Below are positions 7,360-57,216 of a stretch of DNA of 64,000 bases, in pieces; positions within the stretch are counted from its first letter, which is position 1; each line of letters starts with the position of its first letter. The stretch comes from Planctomycetota bacterium. Lineage in GTDB: Bacteria; Planctomycetota; Phycisphaerae; UBA1845. Both the position numbers and the translations under genes were made by a program. The stretch spans positions 7,560-71,559 of the forward strand of contig JAZDHF010000266.1 in the NCBI GenBank assembly GCA_043806315.1, in the 5' to 3' direction. The notes under the pieces were generated by a model. That model was not told the origin of the DNA and searched no databases. It worked only from the letters and a program-made list of their open reading frames with translations.

Positions 7360-7999
7360 TGGACTGCCTCCGTTTTTCATGATGGCCGTCCAACCAATAC
7401 ACATACCTAAACTTGGAAATTCTTGGGATTCGTGAAATCTCGATGCCGTCTGGGACGTGCGCCCGGCGCGAGTACCGCTTCCCCGCCGCGTCTTCGTAAT
7501 CGAACCGGGGCGTTTTCCGCTCTTGATCCGTATGCCCGTCGCTGATCCAGTTTCCGGCCCGGTAAATCGTACCCTGATGCCCCGCGGAGGGATCAGCGTA
7601 AGACACCAGACACCCAACATCGCGCCGGTTCTTCCGTAACCACTGAATCGCGCGGGACATAAACCACGTCTCTGCGTTCTTCGGGGTTCCGTCCTCAATG
7701 AATAGCCGCGCCAGTTCCCATGCCGCTGTTCCGTAACGCTTCGCGGTCTCACGCGGAGGTAGGGCGAACACGATACAGCCGATTACGGAGCACTTTTCGA
7801 TCAAGGCCAGCGTCAAGACGACAACTCCCGGCCAGTGGTGGAGGTAGTGCTTTCGAACGAGGTGGTCCACTGCGGGCCGCCCAACCTCCATCACCCTCCA
7901 ACCTGCGAATGGACGCAGTGCGAGCGTGGGAGTTGAAGCGTCGGTCTGTTTGGTGGATTCCGTACCACCCTCCCTCGAAGGGTCGCGGTGGGCTGGCAT
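7349..7999 (-). CDS. mom: Mom-family (GNAT-fold) DNA adenine modification protein-like
   Basis: 216-aa ORF. HYLHHWPG ... TPKNAETWFMSRAIQWLRK ... LVSYADPSAGHQGTIYRAGNW matches my recollection of the Mom-family signature (SYADP..GH.G.IY.A.NW). The start is uncertain (M1 at 7999 or M37). Confidence 0.6.
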   Translation of the reverse strand: MPAHRDPSREGGTESTKQTDASTPTLALRPFAGWRVMEVGRPAVDHLVRKHYLHHWPGVVVLTLALIEKCSVIGCIVFALPPRETAKRYGTAAWELARLFIEDGTPKNAETWFMSRAIQWLRKNRRDVGCLVSYADPSAGHQGTIYRAGNWISDGHTDQERKTPRFDYEDAAGKRYSRRAHVPDGIEISRIPRISKFRYVYWLDGHHEKRRQSNVR

Positions 8000-52046: not shown

Positions 52047-53792
52047 TCACATCCTTATTCTTATAGCCGTCTCGTCGGACCGCCCCGTCCGGTAGTCCAC
52101 CGCCTGCGGTCGGATCTCGACCACCTCCCCGCCCGGCAGGATCTTCCGGTCGCGCGGGGCCGTCCGCAACGCCACCACCGCCAGCGCCAGCGCTAAGACA
52201 GTATCGTCATGACACCCCTGACTGGCTTCCGCCTTCCCGCTGGCCTTGATGACGAAGGTCCGCAATTCCTGGAGGGTCACGGAGTCGTGCACGATAATGG
52301 ACCCCTCGCGCAACGCCGTGTCCAGCGCCGAAACCAACTGGGGCCGCGTCACCATGTCGGTGCGCCACCCGAGCGAGCCTTCCTGGCCGCGGTGTTGCTG
52401 GTCCGGACTGGGTTGCCTGCGGTAGATGAGGTGCAGCGGATAGCCGAGGCGAAGCAGTTCCTCCAGCAGGCCGATCTCAATGTTGACCTCTATAATAATG
52501 TAGGCCCAGTTGTAAAACCGTCCTAGATCGTACAGATATTGCGCGAAGGTGGCGGGGGTGAGACGCTCCCGGACCACAGCGACCTGTTCCCCCACGTCCT
52601 GATCGAGCACTTGAGCGACCGAGTAGTTCGGGTCGCCGGCCACCAACTCGCTCCCCTGCGCGATGTCGGCCCCGATGACGTAACCCCTGCCCGCCACCGG
52701 CCTTTTGAACAGCGACATCTCGCCATGTTCGCGGGTGAAGAACTGCACCGAACGCCGGGTCCCCACGGCGATCTCCTCCAGCCCGCCCAGGATCGGGTCG
52801 CGAAACGTCGGCATCCGGGCGATGGAACGCACGTCGAAGCGCGGTCGCCCGGAAGTGAGGAAGGCCTCTTCCGGGCTGATCGGCATTTCTTGATGGAAAC
52901 GGTCCTCGCTGTTCTTGCACTGGTTCGCGATCCACCAGCGCCGCCAGTTCAACTGTTCCAGAACCAACGAGTGCTGCTGTTGCAAGTCCTTCTCTTCGCG
53001 CGTGAGGGACCGTTCCAACTCGATCTTCTCCCGGTCGTCCCGAAACGGGCGTCGGTATTCGGGGTGCTCGTTCCACCCGAAAAAGACCGGGACCCATTCG
53101 CTGCCGCCTTTCGGGTTCGTGGCCTGCTTCCAGAGGTCGTAGAACTCGCCGCCGACGCCGTTCGCCGTGCTCTCCACGATCACCATGGTGTCCGCGTCGT
53201 CCGGGACCGCCTGCATGAGCGCAGTCTGAACCGTCGCCGGATCGCGCCAGAAGGCGAACTCGGACAGGTGCAGGAACCGCAGATTGAAGGACCGGCCCAC
53301 CACCACCGCGTCCGCCGACTTCACCTGGATATAGGAGGAATTGGACCATTCCAGTCGCTCCTCGTTGTCCTTCACCAACGGAGGCAATGCGAACCCGCGC
53401 GCCGCCCGATAGGATTCCTGAAACTGCTGGTAGTAGCCGAACAGGTTCTTCGCGCTGTCGTACTTCTCGCTCACCACGAAGCACTGCTGGCCCGGCGTGA
53501 ACGCGACGCGCCGAAAGAACTCCGAAGCCACGCCCACACTGAAGGAGACCTGCCGGGCCTTGAGCACCACCACCCGCACGGGCCGCTTGCGCTCCCGTTG
53601 GCGCTCGATCACTTCGTCCAGCCGCTTCTGCGCGGGCCACAGATCGAGCGGAACCGACACACCCTTCTTGTCCCGGATCGACAGGTTCTCCCGGCACCAG
53701 ACCTCGTGACCCCCGCGATGGCCGGCGAGGGCGAAGGCCAAGGCCATGTCGGCGGGGGAGAGAGTCTGGGTTGCGGTCACGGCTCCACCCAC
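52047..53792 (-). CDS. terL: terminase large subunit (581 aa)
   Basis: ATPase-type VVVLKARQVSFSVG, MVIVESTANGVGGEFYDLW, and C-terminal nuclease-type CHDDTVLALALA. The portal gene follows. Confidence 0.9.
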   Translation of the reverse strand: MGGAVTATQTLSPADMALAFALAGHRGGHEVWCRENLSIRDKKGVSVPLDLWPAQKRLDEVIERQRERKRPVRVVVLKARQVSFSVGVASEFFRRVAFTPGQQCFVVSEKYDSAKNLFGYYQQFQESYRAARGFALPPLVKDNEERLEWSNSSYIQVKSADAVVVGRSFNLRFLHLSEFAFWRDPATVQTALMQAVPDDADTMVIVESTANGVGGEFYDLWKQATNPKGGSEWVPVFFGWNEHPEYRRPFRDDREKIELERSLTREEKDLQQQHSLVLEQLNWRRWWIANQCKNSEDRFHQEMPISPEEAFLTSGRPRFDVRSIARMPTFRDPILGGLEEIAVGTRRSVQFFTREHGEMSLFKRPVAGRGYVIGADIAQGSELVAGDPNYSVAQVLDQDVGEQVAVVRERLTPATFAQYLYDLGRFYNWAYIIIEVNIEIGLLEELLRLGYPLHLIYRRQPSPDQQHRGQEGSLGWRTDMVTRPQLVSALDTALREGSIIVHDSVTLQELRTFVIKASGKAEASQGCHDDTVLALALAVVALRTAPRDRKILPGGEVVEIRPQAVDYRTGRSDETAIRIRM

Positions 53793-54097
53793 TGTTCCAC
53801 CCAGCGGTCGAGTTGTACGTCGGTGAGGGGTTGGTCGGTGATTACTTTCGGAGGGGGCAACTCATCCTGAATCCAGGTGTGGCCGAAGTAACAGTTGAAG
53901 TACCACGAACCGTCGCCTGGGTATCGGCTCTTGTTCATGTCCGGCTTGGACCCGCAGAACGGACAGTGGTAGGGATGAAACGAACAATGCGCGGATCGCT
54001 TTGAGCACCACTCCGCGTGTTCTCCCGTCCCGAACACGCACTTCTCGCACGCCATCGCTGGGTCCGGGTTGTAGGGGCGGGAGCGGAGGTCGGCCAT
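53777..54097 (-). CDS. Cys/His-rich zinc-ribbon protein (106 aa), Lar-like CPFCG element
   Basis: CEKC...HCPFCGSKP...WYFNC. It overlaps the TerL start by 16 nt. Confidence 0.55.
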   Translation of the reverse strand: MADLRSRPYNPDPAMACEKCVFGTGEHAEWCSKRSAHCSFHPYHCPFCGSKPDMNKSRYPGDGSWYFNCYFGHTWIQDELPPPKVITDQPLTDVQLDRWVEQWVEP

Positions 54098-54291
54098 CAG
54101 TTCCTCGACTCGTCTTCCGCTACCCCCACCGGAACGCGGTCGTAGCAGACACGGTAACCCACGGCCAGGCGCTCTCCGGCCCGCGAGGCTTCCACTTGGC
54201 TGGCGAAGCGGTCCACCTCCACGTACCCGGCGTGGGGGCCGTCCTTGCGGATCTGGAGTACCCAGGGCTTCAGGGGTTCAGGGTTTGGCAT
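54097..54291 (-). CDS. hypothetical protein (64 aa)
   Basis: ORF with a 1-nt stop/start overlap at 54097. Confidence 0.5.
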   Translation of the reverse strand: MPNPEPLKPWVLQIRKDGPHAGYVEVDRFASQVEASRAGERLAVGYRVCYDRVPVGVAEDESRN

Positions 54292-54544
54292 GGCTTTTCC
54301 TTATCCTCTTTCTGAGCGCGAACAGCGCGCCAGCCATCTCGCGTCTAACCTCGGGAGTCGCCAAGACCTCGCGAAAGTGAACGGCCAACGACTGGCGAAT
54401 GCAGTTCAACTCCCTGAGTTCGTCGGCGGTTATGGCGAGCCGGCGGAAGTCTGGCAGACACAGGTCGAGCTTTCGCCTCAGTATAGCCAGCCGCGCCAGG
54501 GCCTTGCGGGGGACGCGGGGCTTTATACTTCCCGGCTCCTCCAT
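54278..54544 (-). CDS. hypothetical helical protein (88 aa)
   Basis: ORF that starts 10 nt after the sigma-factor stop. Confidence 0.5.
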   Translation of the reverse strand: MEEPGSIKPRVPRKALARLAILRRKLDLCLPDFRRLAITADELRELNCIRQSLAVHFREVLATPEVRREMAGALFALRKRIRKSHAKP

Positions 54545-54553
54545 AATTCCTCC

Positions 54554-55135
54554 TTATACCTGCTCCCTCAGCCTCTTTACCGCCCGTTCCTTCCACGCCT
54601 CCACGGTGTTGGCCTTAACCGGACGCCGCATCAGCCGGGCGATCTCCCCGAACCCCAACCCGGCGCAGTAACGCAGGCGCACCACCAGGCGCAGGCGCAC
54701 CGGCAGAGCGTCCACCCGGCGCCAGACGGCGGCGCGAAACTCCTCGTAAGCCATTAAGGACTCGGGGGATGGAGCGGAATCGGCGCGGTAAGTTGCCCGG
54801 TTAGCCGACCAGTCTGGAGTTTCATCGCTCAGAAACATCCGCGGAACCCCTTGCGGCACCCAGGTCAGCCGCGCCGGCTTCCTCCGCCCCAAGTCCCGAA
54901 CCGCCCCCGCTACCGGCTTCCTGATCCACGCGCCCAGCGGGACGCCGCGGGAAGCGTCCCAGCGGTCCACCGCCTGCACCAGAGCCAGGTAGGCTACCTG
55001 GCGGGCTTCGGCCAACTCGATCCAAGGGGGCAACTTCCGATGCTCCCGCTCGGCAAGACCGGCGGCAAGCGGCATCTGGGAGAGAATCAGCGACTCGCGC
55101 GCCTTGCCGTTGCCTTTGGCGGGCGCTTGCCTCAC
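54554..55135 (-). CDS. sigma-70-family (ECF-like, two-domain) RNA polymerase sigma factor (193 aa)
   Basis: Region-2-like YLALVQAVDRWDASRGVPLGAWIRKPVAGAVRD. Region-4 HTH LRYCAGLGFGEIARLMRRPVKANTVEAWKERAVKRLRE. Confidence 0.8.
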   Translation of the reverse strand: MRQAPAKGNGKARESLILSQMPLAAGLAEREHRKLPPWIELAEARQVAYLALVQAVDRWDASRGVPLGAWIRKPVAGAVRDLGRRKPARLTWVPQGVPRMFLSDETPDWSANRATYRADSAPSPESLMAYEEFRAAVWRRVDALPVRLRLVVRLRYCAGLGFGEIARLMRRPVKANTVEAWKERAVKRLREQV

Positions 55136-55326
55136 CCCGCCTCCAGGTTGCCCACGGCGCTGTATCGGGGCTTCGAGGGCGCGGTCCGGACCTGGCGCAG
55201 CCGGACCTCTTCGGCGTCGCCCCGCTTGCGCTCGGCCTCGGCCACCTCAAGCGCCAATTCACGCCGCTCCAGGTCGGATAACGCGCGACCGCGCCAGTCC
55301 CAGGCGCGCTTACGGGCGCCGGTCAT
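55132..55326 (-). CDS. hypothetical charged helical protein (64 aa)
   Basis: ATG at 55326 (ATGA overlap), and the stop overlaps the sigma start (55132-55135). The codon-position GC sample at 55201-55260 is compatible with this frame. Confidence 0.45.
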   Translation of the reverse strand: MTGARKRAWDWRGRALSDLERRELALEVAEAERKRGDAEEVRLRQVRTAPSKPRYSAVGNLEAG

Positions 55327-55499
55327 GGCGCGCAGCTCCAGAGCACGGCGGCCCCCACCCAGCAGCAGACCGCTCCGCGCCACTCTCCCAGCGCCAGGCA
55401 GACGGCGCCGGCCACGGCGAAGCCGACGGCAAGGATGCGGGAGAGCAGCCGGACCCGAGCGAGGGTCTCGGCGGTGACTTGGCGGGCGGGCTTCATCAT
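55323..55499 (-). CDS. small membrane protein (58 aa)
   Basis: MMKPARQV...ILAVGFAVAGAVCLALGEWRGAVCCWVGAAVLW. ATGA overlaps on both sides. Confidence 0.4.
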   Translation of the reverse strand: MMKPARQVTAETLARVRLLSRILAVGFAVAGAVCLALGEWRGAVCCWVGAAVLWSCAP

Positions 55500-55624
55500 C
55501 GACACCCGTGGCAGGATGAGCACTGCCGGCAGGCTTTGCCACCTGGGAGACCGCGCGCCACGAACGTCATCTGCGTTTGTTTCGTGGCCGTTGGCTTTTC
55601 GTATACCTTCGCGTTTGGTTTCAT
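55496..55624 (-). CDS. 42-aa peptide ending in CxxCxxCxxC
   Basis: Hand translation MKPNAKVYEKPTATKQTQMTFVARGLPGGKACRQCSSCHGCR. The stop overlaps the next ATG (55496-55499). It is the first ORF of the sigma operon. Confidence 0.4.
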   Translation of the reverse strand: MKPNAKVYEKPTATKQTQMTFVARGLPGGKACRQCSSCHGCR

Positions 55625-55687
55625 GCGCTTCCGATAACCTCCATTATGTAAACTTCACTCACTGATTCTAAAGGACTTACGGGCGAG

Positions 55688-55740
55688 GTTTTCCACAGGG
55701 CAAAAACCCCAATGAAAACGCTATGTTTTCTGTGGAAAAC
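55688..55740. repeat. perfect 11-bp inverted repeat GTTTTCCACAG / CTGTGGAAAAC with a 31-nt spacer
   Basis: Arms at 55688-55698 and 55730-55740, starting 3 nt after the stop of the winged-helix gene. Confidence 0.7.
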
Positions 55741-55742
55741 GC

Positions 55743-56285
55743 TCATGACGCACACTCCGCAAGCCGAATGTCAACGGCGGACATAACCTTCCGGTCAAGT
55801 TTCAGATCTAGGTTGCAGGATCGGCAGTGGCCGACTCGGAGTAATCCACCGCGCGGTTGCCGGCAACGCGGGCAGATGACGGACGGCTTACTCCGGCGCT
55901 CGGTCGGAACTGCGGCGGGTTTTGCCGGCGTTTGGGCGATTCCTTTGCCGGCGAACACGGGTGAGGTTAGTTCATACCATGACCGCTGGCCGTTCGCGGT
56001 CTTGCCTATCCTGATATCCCCATGGACTACCAGATCGGCAATCCTGCGTTGCACGGTCGAGCGACCCTTCCCGATGAACCGTCCCAAAGCTCGGACACCG
56101 ATACTCGAACGGCCCCCTGAGAGCGTCTTGAGAGACAGAATCCCAAGGATCACCTTCGCGTCCGAGTGCAATCCCGGATCGAGTAAGGCGTCCGCATCCG
56201 TGCGCCCAAACCAGTGTCTTTTGACCTTCCCGACATCCAAAAGCGTCCCATCTGGGTGGGACGGTTTGTCTTGAAAGCGTCCCAT
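55743..56285 (-). CDS. winged-helix DNA-binding protein (180 aa) with C-terminal CPRC...CRSC zinc ribbon
   Basis: LHSDAKVILGILSL...SIGVRALGRFIGKGRSTVQRRIADLVVHGDI is a wHTH-like pattern. Start chosen at ATG 56285. The ORF is open to 56507, but 56301-56360 shows no codon-position GC bias. Confidence 0.6.
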   Translation of the reverse strand: MGRFQDKPSHPDGTLLDVGKVKRHWFGRTDADALLDPGLHSDAKVILGILSLKTLSGGRSSIGVRALGRFIGKGRSTVQRRIADLVVHGDIRIGKTANGQRSWYELTSPVFAGKGIAQTPAKPAAVPTERRSKPSVICPRCRQPRGGLLRVGHCRSCNLDLKLDRKVMSAVDIRLAECAS

Positions 56286-56296
56286 CTGGGTGGGAC
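56240..56296. promoter_or_regulatory. two perfect 23-bp direct repeats, each containing the palindrome GTCCCA-N6-TGGGAC (operator-like)
   Basis: AAAGCGTCCCATCTGGGTGGGAC occurs at 56240-56262 and 56274-56296, 34 bp centre to centre. The second copy contains the chosen ATG (56285-56283). Confidence 0.7.
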
Positions 56297-56520
56297 ACGT
56301 AATAGAAGAACCTACTACACAGGCAACTTTGCGCGCCAGTTGCGTCATCCGACGCGCCTCCGTGCAGCAAGTTCCGCCTGAACCGCAGCGGCGCGCGCGG
56401 AGAATTCTCGCGTGTTTCGGTTTAACCGTCGGTAGAATTCCCGCTCTGAATCTGCCACCCTCAACCCCGCCCGCTTCCCAGTCCTCGCCGGCTCGGGATT
56501 GCGCCAAATGACCGCCAGCC

Positions 56521-57216
56521 TCACGGCTTACCGCCCCCCACGGTTCCGGCGTCCACCACCCGCCGCCCCGCCGGCAAGCCCCGCTCCTCCGCCATGATGC
56601 CGGCCGCGGCGCGCTCGATCCTGGCCCAGCGCTCGGGGTCAGCCTGCTGAATGGCTTGCACCGCGTCGTAAGTGACCGTCAGACGCTGCTCGCCGGGCTT
56701 GAGCTGTTGGCCGCTCTCCTGCCACTGACCGACCTCGATAGCAGCCTGGCGCTGGTACTCCCGCACTTCTTTGAGGTAAGCCGGGTTTGGTTCGGGCACC
56801 TCTACCAATCCTGTCAACTTCGTATGGATTTTGTCGAGCGCGCGAACACGCTCAATCCGTCGCGCGATGGAAAATGAGAGAACATCCTCTGAAATCAACG
56901 ACTTGTGCTTCTCGACTTCGGCGCGAAACTCGGGATGAACCTTCCAATATGCGACAGTTCGTGGCGAAACATTGCAGTCGCGCGCAATGGCCGGGTCTGA
57001 AATCTTGTCCTCTGCGACAAGCACGGCGGCCTTACGAGAGGAAGTGTTCCAGCGGAACGGCCTGCAAGTTTCAGGGGTTTTCTCGCAATTGTCGGCAACT
57101 GAGGTGCAGCTTTCCGCAAGAATCGCGCAATCTGAAGCAATCGGCGGGCAATTTTCAGCGACAACCGTGCAATCGCTCACACTTATACTTTGCACTTCCG
57201 ACATTAACCGTGTCAA
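56521..57216 (-). CDS. terminase small subunit-like HTH protein (231 aa from TTG 57216; 227 aa from ATG 57204)
   Basis: AAVLVAEDKISDPAIARDCNVSPRTVAYWKVHPEFRAEVEK (HTH) and KEVREYQRQAAIEVGQWQE read like TerS proteins I recall. It lies 2.7 kb upstream of TerL, with the sigma operon in between. Confidence 0.5.
   Translation of the reverse strand: MTRLMSEVQSISVSDCTVVAENCPPIASDCAILAESCTSVADNCEKTPETCRPFRWNTSSRKAAVLVAEDKISDPAIARDCNVSPRTVAYWKVHPEFRAEVEKHKSLISEDVLSFSIARRIERVRALDKIHTKLTGLVEVPEPNPAYLKEVREYQRQAAIEVGQWQESGQQLKPGEQRLTVTYDAVQAIQQADPERWARIERAAAGIMAEERGLPAGRRVVDAGTVGGGKP
57064..57183 (-). repeat. six-fold Cys heptad coding repeat, seen as phased GCA(A) every 10-11 bp
   Basis: Cys codons (gca on the plus strand) sit at 57064, 57085, 57106, 57127, 57148 and 57169, exactly 21 bp apart. 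Additional GCAA sit at 57095, 57116 and 57137. Confidence 0.8.

Follow-up and report, generated by a model that had tools for sequence, protein, structure and literature searches.

Phage sigma factors are a known route by which host transcription is taken over. Those devoted to middle or late transcription, as in the phiEco32/7-11 group, Bacillus SPO1 (gp28 and gp33/34), and T4 (gp55), are small sigma-70 proteins of lytic-type phages presumed to retarget the host core RNA polymerase. In the 7-11 group, host-type as well as phage-specific promoters serve the sigma gene (PMC4331800), and the seed sequences of phage sigmas are included in the family TIGR02937 (PMC9429907). The stretch of DNA analyzed here (64,000 nucleotides of contig JAZDHF010000266.1 in the Planctomycetota assembly GCA_043806315.1, hereafter the window) carries at 54554–55135 of the (−) strand a gene for a 193-amino-acid (aa) sigma-70-family protein, preceded by three very small open reading frames (ORFs): p64, p58TM, and p42Cys. 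The protein shares its size and its probable setting with the phage sigma factors above and differs from them in several respects: no sequence relationship is detectable past the superfamily, the gene stands between a gene resembling that of the terminase small subunit (TerS) and the gene of the large subunit (TerL) instead of in an early or middle region, and neither a cognate promoter motif nor a host-sigma inhibitor was identified here. The explanation that seems rather probable as a whole is that of a divergent phage sigma factor set in a conserved cassette, next to three unrelated occupants of a variable slot.

Both domains of the protein are recognized by sigma factor profiles. Pfam Sigma70_r2 (PF04542) matches residues 31–85 with 24.4 bits (cut-off 24.0) and Sigma70_r4_2 (PF08281) matches residues 135–189 with 29.3 bits (cut-off 25.7), the sigma2 and sigma4 domains being joined by a linker of ~45 aa. 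This bears out a preliminary description of the locus, made from the letters of the DNA, which had read the gene as a two-domain sigma-70 protein. The score against NCBIfam TIGR02937 (sigma70-ECF) is 60.5 bits for a cut-off of 42.9, and there is no match to Pfam regions 1 or 3. The placement in a group of extracytoplasmic function (ECF) sigmas that had been envisaged could not be made, as the 38 other NCBIfam sigma subfamily or equivalog models all score far under their cut-offs (e.g., 42.9 against 189.6 for FliA_WhiG). A profile built from the eight sigma homologs matches FliA/WhiG structures in the PDB over region 2 (6pfv, 6pmi, and 1rp3, E from 2e-15 to 4e-13) and RpoE over region 4 (1or7, E 3e-8), and the best PHROG is phrog_1740 (E 1.9e-5). 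The AlphaFold2 (AF2) model of one homolog, P0006, contains two helical domains, with confidence (pLDDT) of 81–92 and 75–90, separated by a disordered linker of ~30 aa; sigma2 and sigma4 are the sole structured parts of the sigma core in this model, and its top Foldseek matches are all sigma factors. The protein thus resembles sigma-28 (FliA/WhiG) in region 2, RpoE in region 4, and ECF sigmas in having two domains and a flexible linker, whereas it lies far below the subfamily cut-offs of FliA/WhiG and ECF sigmas and has no sigma3 domain. It is the only sigma factor of its contig and the weakest among 24 region 2 matches in the metagenome-assembled genome (MAG) to which the contig was assigned, and so did not arise by recent copying from the host; its best tblastn match in that genome is 28% identical. 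Profiles and model alike thus indicate that the gene encodes a genuine, very divergent two-domain (ECF-type architecture) factor of the sigma-70 family.

The window corresponds to positions 7560–71559 of a 72,369-bp contig (G000:C266), which has an exact 141-bp direct repeat at both ends. The contig is therefore a complete phage genome of ~72.2 kb, from groundwater, whose assembly was circular and which was assigned to a 4.6-Mb MAG; an integrated prophage is excluded, and the window is most of this phage genome. Homologs of the sigma factor are very rare. A search of 5.8 billion proteins returned only seven, with 51–82% identity, all metagenomic and several from one aquifer. Together with the window they make eight sigma lineages, the loci of the relatives running from L003 to L013. 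No relative was found in IMG/VR by single-protein or profile searches, or among GenBank phages by blastn. In the GTDB genomes searched, the one match was a fragment in Luedemannella with 40% identity, and the JGI metagenomes gave four loci, all from the same Hainich populations. The source hosts of the lineage are probably poorly studied groundwater bacteria.

The order of genes around sigma is shared among these relatives. Contigs L003 to L013 have in common a TerS-like gene, a basic ORF of ~59 aa, a winged-helix regulator, small genes, sigma, further small genes, TerL, and a portal gene. TerL and the portal gene lie downstream of sigma in L003, L006, and L007, where, as in L010 and L011, the 59-aa, winged-helix, and TerS-like genes are found upstream of it. 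In the window, sigma and the micro-ORFs likewise stand between the TerS-like gene (56521–57216) and TerL (52047–53792; phrog_2, E 2.8e-31), which are parted by about ten small genes in total. The placement given in the preliminary description is right; the best profile match of the TerS-like gene is weak (phrog_2538, E 8e-5). To judge from the shared gene order, this small clade keeps sigma between the terS-like gene and terL as a conserved feature. Redirection of the host RNA polymerase by the phage sigma is plausible, because the factor is genuine and keeps its position upstream of terL in every relative found.

The gene directly upstream of sigma shows no such constancy. The window has p64 there, L003 a 75-aa membrane ORF, L006 an 86-aa ORF, L007 a 73-aa ORF, L010 and L012 a "TEFEV" protein (64 or 61 aa), L011 a 71-aa ORF, and L013, whose sigma is 82% identical, a 91-aa Cys-containing ORF. 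The slot upstream of sigma is thus, as far as these loci tell, hypervariable, nearly every lineage holding another gene in it. Conservation of the micro-ORFs in relatives, which the preliminary description had left to be verified, is lacking for two of the three: p42Cys and p58TM are found in none of the seven other sigma lineages. None of the three has a match in Pfam, PHROGs, NCBIfam, or PADLOC or a paralog in the MAG. On this comparison, the three micro-ORFs are unrelated occupants of a hypervariable slot and not a conserved anti-sigma set. Sigma factors controlled by FlgM, RsiG, RseA, or ZAS anti-sigmas offer a contrast, as here no neighbor carries an anti-sigma domain and no upstream partner is conserved along with sigma.

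The three micro-ORFs do lie where they had been described, on the (−) strand, p42Cys (55496–55624) ending in ACRQCSSCHGCR, p58TM (55323–55499) being hydrophobic and p64 (55132–55326) charged. Each overlaps the next by 4 nt. The overlaps were all said to be ATGA, which holds for p42Cys/p58TM and p58TM/p64; the one between p64 and sigma is GTGA, because the start codon of sigma is GTG. A GGAGG lies 4 nt before that start. Codon-position GC backs all four frames, with third-position values (GC3) of 0.65 for p42Cys, 0.88 for p58TM, 0.86 for p64, and 0.80 for sigma, the reference values for the portal gene and TerL being 0.81–0.84. The same measure gives no coding signal for a 44-codon ORF (55621–55755) upstream of p42Cys, within an AT-richer gap. 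A 136-aa ORF (55132–55542) that would extend p64 across p58TM and replace both was rejected for lack of third-position GC signal. Over p58TM, GC3 is 0.88 in its own frame against 0.50–0.57 in the competing p64 frame. This ORF, which has an alternative GTG start at 55523 (giving 66 aa), contains two hydrophobic stretches with Kyte-Doolittle means over 15 residues of up to 2.55. No homolog beyond itself was found among 5.8e9 proteins, and it has no similarity to the membrane ORF of L003. p58TM is thus probably coding, an orphan resembling a membrane peptide.

p64 is a mosaic. Its residues 1–37 are 76% identical to a 66-aa protein of L011, and of the 23 codons that differ between them, 14 do so by synonymous changes only and 9 by nonsynonymous ones (dN/dS 0.14). 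The N-terminal part of p64 is therefore, on this ratio, translated and constrained by purifying selection. Residues 1–25 also share 15 of 25 identities with the 33-aa N-terminal extension of sigma P0006, in the L007 lineage. This fusion is in frame, has no alternative start codon between its ATG and the conserved sigma core, and is carried by several independent assemblies (L007–L009, L016–L017). The module is thus separate in L011 and fused in L007, i.e., present in only two of the seven other sigma lineages. The other end of p64 has another history: residues 45–64 (...RYSAVGNLEAG) correspond to the C-terminus of a 113-aa protein of L003, unrelated in the rest of its sequence, and likewise to an 83-aa protein of L010, and the DNA common to the 3′ part of p64 and these two genes takes in the GGAGG that serves the next gene. 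p64 would then be a recombinant small protein, and it may act with sigma, since another lineage has the N-terminal helix of p64 fused to sigma; among the micro-proteins, the natural fusion in P0006 is the only evidence pointing to one that works with sigma. Residues 7–27 (RAWDWRGRALSDLERRELALE) resemble one tetratricopeptide repeat (TPR; AWxNRGxALSDLGRxEEA) of long repeat proteins, a likeness that suggests the shape of a helical hairpin rather than homology.

p42Cys belongs to a family that is rare and recurs in unrelated phages. Two homologs were found in the protein collection, P0024 (MKKIKKKVYEKPIVRKQMKMDFPLQIINASNRELACRQCSSCHGCR) and the similar P0025, and IMG/VR yielded 8 contigs with a back-translated pattern and 9 with a profile-seeded scan, i.e., ~10 of 2.9 million contigs. 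No member was found in 50,697 GenBank phages, and a profile search of 400 genomes of the host phylum gave only sub-threshold matches containing stop codons. The family is not in Pfam, PHROGs, or NCBIfam, nor is it mentioned in the searchable literature. Its pattern is K.YEKP..M.F..ACRQCS[ST]CHGCR-COOH, and nine aligned members (alignment A5) share Y8, M19, F21, and the last 12 residues, with four Cys and one His invariant, an invariance that is partly ascertainment since the collection-wide searches needed exact words or patterns. In the tail, 8 of 12 codons differ synonymously between the window and L019, including TCC against AGC for Ser, and dN/dS between the window and L027 is 0.17 over 34 codons. 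The codon comparisons thus mark p42Cys as a real translated gene under clear purifying selection.

The neighborhoods of p42Cys elsewhere have nothing to do with sigma. In L035 the gene lies between TerS (phrog_4044, E 9e-29) and TerL, and stop and start codons overlap; in L029 it is found 240 bp upstream of TerS (phrog_51, E 1e-34) and TerL; in L032 it is flanked by a Mu-type portal gene, which it directly follows, and a Mu-F-like gene, which it precedes; and in L036 it is 1.5 kb downstream of TerL. In L019 (P0025) a T4-type portal gene is ~1.3 kb upstream and the peptide directly follows a PP-loop/Asn-synthase-like gene, and in L020 (P0024) it comes directly after the C-terminus of a radical-SAM/SPASM protein (the SPASM domain) and a PqqD gene. 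No sigma gene adjoins the peptide at any of these six loci. In L019 (4271–5147) the peptide homolog overlaps the preceding Asn-synthase-like gene, whose 254-aa product has the PP-loop motif SGGLDSS and is a possible minimal enzyme for modifying the Cys peptide. In all, p42Cys looks like a phage micro-protein associated with packaging genes that resembles the precursors of RiPPs (peptides that are made by ribosomes and then modified post-translationally), with no apparent link to sigma; in the window it has the look of an independently promoted insert beside sigma.

The micro-proteins invite several other explanations. The one put forward in the preliminary description is that the three form a compact sigma/anti-sigma (or activating) module. 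In such a module the Cys peptide could sense redox state or zinc, with the membrane peptide serving as an anchor and the helical protein doing the binding. This explanation draws on the coupling of all four genes by 4-nt overlaps and on the small membrane ORF directly upstream of sigma in L003, and small anti-sigma factors of micro-protein size do exist (NepR, class II CnrY-type). It is nonetheless very improbable: p42Cys and p58TM are missing from all the other sigma lineages, the former occurs in at least nine phages beside terminase or portal genes with no adjacent sigma, and the latter is unlike the ORF of L003. There is no anti-sigma, zf-HC2, or ZAS match among the partners in Pfam or NCBIfam, as had been noted from the outset, and the tail of p42Cys (CRQCSSCHGCR) contains no HxxxCxxC. 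What survives of the module, tentatively, is p64. Alone, it could be a sigma partner whose N-terminal helix is a detachable sigma region acting in trans as inhibitor or stabilizer, which we regard as possible if on balance unlikely. The fusion in P0006, the purifying selection on the N-terminus, the GTGA coupling with a good Shine-Dalgarno sequence, and the AF2 model of the P0006 extension as a single helix (residues 3–31) speak for it. Known small helical anti-sigmas, NepR and AsiA of phage T4, are of similar size to p64, which is also charged and helical, whereas p64 has no sequence or profile similarity to them and its conservation with sigma is patchy. Moreover, the first 8 codons, which are shared, could merely mark a recombination junction.

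For p42Cys two roles can be set against each other. It may be an "orphan" RiPP precursor, modified by a radical-SAM/RRE (RiPP recognition element) system of the host or of another phage, or a decoy for such a system, p58TM being possibly an immunity or export peptide. The peptide has the size (42 aa), the K-rich N-terminus followed by YEKP, and the C-terminal Cys cluster of RRE-dependent precursors, and SCIFF and ranthipeptides are Cys-rich peptides modified by radical-SAM/SPASM enzymes with which it can be compared. The motif YxxP is present in seven of the nine members and YxxPx[LVIFA] in six (the window has YEKPTA), and [Y/W]xxPx[L/V/I/F/A] is the leader motif bound by discrete lasso-type RREs (PMC13381572). 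The neighbors of P0024 and P0025, the PqqD and SPASM matches of the host MAG (on other contigs only), and the moron-like situation of the gene (a self-contained accessory insert, with its own AT-rich upstream gap and promoter-like site) go in the same direction. On the other hand, the phage contig has no RRE, radical-SAM, PqqD, SPASM, or other maturase gene, there is no similar precursor elsewhere in the MAG or in the 400 genomes of the host phylum, the usual context is packaging or head genes, and the peptide genes of other phages have no small membrane gene behind them. RiPP leaders are usually conserved and their cores variable, whereas here it is the tail that is invariant, an invariance inflated by the exact-word searches. 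A lasso peptide in particular is not an option, as the tail ACRQCSSCHGCR contains no Asp or Glu acceptor and so cannot form the macrolactam, which calls for one at position 7–9 of the core; a B2 protease and a full-length C cyclase would also be expected, and the only neighbor of lasso-cyclase type in these loci is the PP-loop fragment of L019. A precursor role is accordingly doubtful. Slightly less probable, and also unlikely, is that the peptide binds metal (Zn or Fe-S) as a small accessory to the packaging of DNA or the assembly of heads. The invariant Cys and His residues and the position beside TerS, TerL, or portal genes in L035, L029, L032, L036, and the window favor this role, yet the peptide is missing from the closest relatives, which package with the same TerL, so that it is not essential; it is also very rare in phage collections, and the context of L020 is enzymatic and not structural. 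We think it rather unlikely, although worth stating, that p42Cys represents an undescribed class of stand-alone, RiPP-precursor-like peptides in the packaging or head modules of unrelated phages, either borrowing or jamming the radical-SAM/RRE maturation of the host or serving as metal-binding capsid-packaging cofactors, the copy in the window being an independently promoted insert. As for sigma itself, it could reprogram host transcription, in the manner of the sporulation-type sigmas of Bacillota phages, and not the late genes of the phage. Phage sigmas that alter host programs exist (PMC9429907), and no phage-specific promoter motif was found. This is nevertheless improbable, given that sigma is far from every host sigma and is placed inside the strand of structural genes, with no lysogeny context visible in the window.

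Some observations weigh against the preferred explanation, a divergent sigma in a conserved cassette with unrelated slot occupants. The collections hold only eight sigma lineages, mostly from one aquifer, which makes the "variable slot" a small sample, and the coding status of p58TM is deduced solely from composition. The link between p64 and sigma comes from one fused lineage and 25 aligned residues, a 71-aa gene parts the p64 homolog from sigma in L011, and five of the eight lineages have no p64 N-terminal module. The lone helix of the P0006 extension is modeled with pLDDT of 54–64 and pTM of 0.40, and at such confidence its docking onto sigma is unreadable. With p64 as query, phmmer against 1.84e9 representative proteins brought up, apart from p64, nothing but its L011 homolog and proteins that resemble it through a single TPR. 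No promoter motif could be attributed to the phage sigma in 43 upstream regions (~5.3 kb). Consensus scans for FliA, RpoE/ECF, SigW, SigB, and SigF/G promoters remained at chance level. Finally, there is no gap or terminator between sigma and terL, and for that reason sigma does not obviously stand ahead of a separate late transcription unit.

A recurrent −35/−10 motif upstream of late genes, which the preliminary description had proposed to look for, was thus not recovered. The de novo search, for two-block words (5+5 to 6+3, spacers of 14–19) and enriched ungapped k-mers, gave only GC-rich words common throughout the genome, such as CGCGCGG, and nothing above composition. GGAAC-N16-18-CGTC occurs 6 times for ~1.7 expected, a rough figure that assumes uniform base composition and would be higher in GC-rich DNA; one of the occurrences is intergenic, at 56351. 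There, at 56351–56380 (−), GGAACTT-N16-CGTC is a textbook ECF-type promoter consensus; it falls in the 3′ end of the 59-aa ORF and immediately upstream of the regulator gene, and one such occurrence is within chance. The word AGTCCTT, followed by TAGAAT, TCCCGC, or ATAATC, is found in three intergenic sites of the (−) strand (55677, 48909, and 26346); the total count of this 7-mer equals expectation, making it a weak lead for a phage-specific promoter element.

Two candidate sites of host type deserve mention. A TTGACA-N17-GCAAAGTATAA motif, present once in the window (57183–57216, −), lies upstream of the TerS-like gene and is kept in three diverged phages, being also found in L003 (3760–3793) and L006 (3679–3712); its TTGACA and TATAA are separated by 23 nt, a wider spacing than a standard sigma-70 promoter allows. 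The other, TTTAGA-18-CATAAT (55643–55672, −), is in the gap upstream of p42Cys, which is ~120 bp long with GC ~0.45 and no coding periodicity; it is a sigma-70-like match from a consensus scan that gave 2 sites for 1.0 expected, which is weak alone. Between the stop codon of the regulator and this promoter-like site is a perfect 11-nt inverted repeat, GTTTTCCACAG/CTGTGGAAAAC, with a 31-nt spacer (55688–55740), and beside it two copies of GAAAACGCT, 21 nt apart (55688–55743). Repeat and copies could be an operator or an RNA hairpin.

The remaining genes of the cassette, on the (−) strand like TerL and sigma, are poorly characterized by profiles. The TerS-like protein has a helix-turn-helix domain (HTH_23) and, besides phrog_2538, a match to phrog_7344 (E 1e-3), these weak TerS matches spanning only the helix-turn-helix region (residues 58–115). 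Its listed TTG start (57216) is probably over-extended, because the first 34 nt of the ORF contain the conserved promoter-like motif. The conserved basic 59-aa ORF (56345–56524) follows, with homologs in L003, L007, L010, and L011. The 254-codon ORF of the winged-helix, MarR-like regulator (55743–56507) overlaps this small ORF in its 5′ part, and for this reason the regulator probably starts downstream of 56345; the regulator has a C-terminal zinc ribbon, and its homologs in L003 to L011 give weak MarR_2 and HTH_24 matches. Downstream of sigma are g88 (54278–54544), an 88-aa ORF with no family match and a coding-like GC3 of 0.74; g64b (54097–54291); and g106 (53777–54097), a Cys-rich 106-aa ORF that overlaps the start of TerL, has a faint similarity to Lar-like zinc ribbons, and has a homolog in L003 (7337–7546).

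Among these, g64b, a 64-aa beta-beta-alpha-beta protein, appears to be the small gene most consistently linked to sigma, being associated with it in four of the eight lineages. Homologs 56–63% identical come directly after sigma in L003 (6586–6813) and L010 (2852–3052), and in L010 the identity of g64b exceeds that of sigma. In L011 (1950–2141) the loss of a stop codon joins g64b to sigma in a protein of 278 aa (P0004), an observation from a single contig of 2.2 kb that calls for caution. The homologs share the pattern KPWVLQxRxDGPHAGYVEV...VGYR...EDE, and the other sigma lineages have a different small family downstream ("FDASGKF..GV.E"). The AF2 model of g64b has a mean pLDDT of 69.5, with no significant fold match in the PDB, and the protein has no family match. 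If sigma has a dedicated regulator, g64b would be at least as good a candidate as p64.

The preferred explanation can be stated as a sequence of events. Sigma is the fixed element of a regulatory cassette common to a few groundwater phages, made up of the TerS-like gene, the 59-aa protein, the winged-helix regulator, the variable slot, sigma, g64b or its alternative, more small genes, TerL, and portal, and the cassette stands at the head of the long strand of structural genes. Host RNA polymerase would start at the host-type site at 57183–57216 (TTGACA...GTATAA), and possibly also at 55643–55672, so that the regulator and sigma are made; sigma would then bind the host core RNA polymerase and switch on the middle or late promoters of the phage. 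Published phage systems, among them the 7-11 group, work in a similar manner. p42Cys travels with packaging and head genes independently of sigma.

To the phage sigmas by which host transcription is taken over, this locus would add a very divergent lineage conserved beside packaging genes, which is of modest interest. The eight relatives, with seven different occupants of a slot whose small genes turn over rapidly, are a warning against equating translational coupling with functional partnership. The unexpected part of the analysis is the 42-aa Cys peptide, which recurs beside terminase or portal genes in phages of low to high GC. If it is indeed a substrate or decoy of host peptide-modifying enzymes, or a cofactor of packaging, p42Cys would be a new kind of phage micro-protein.

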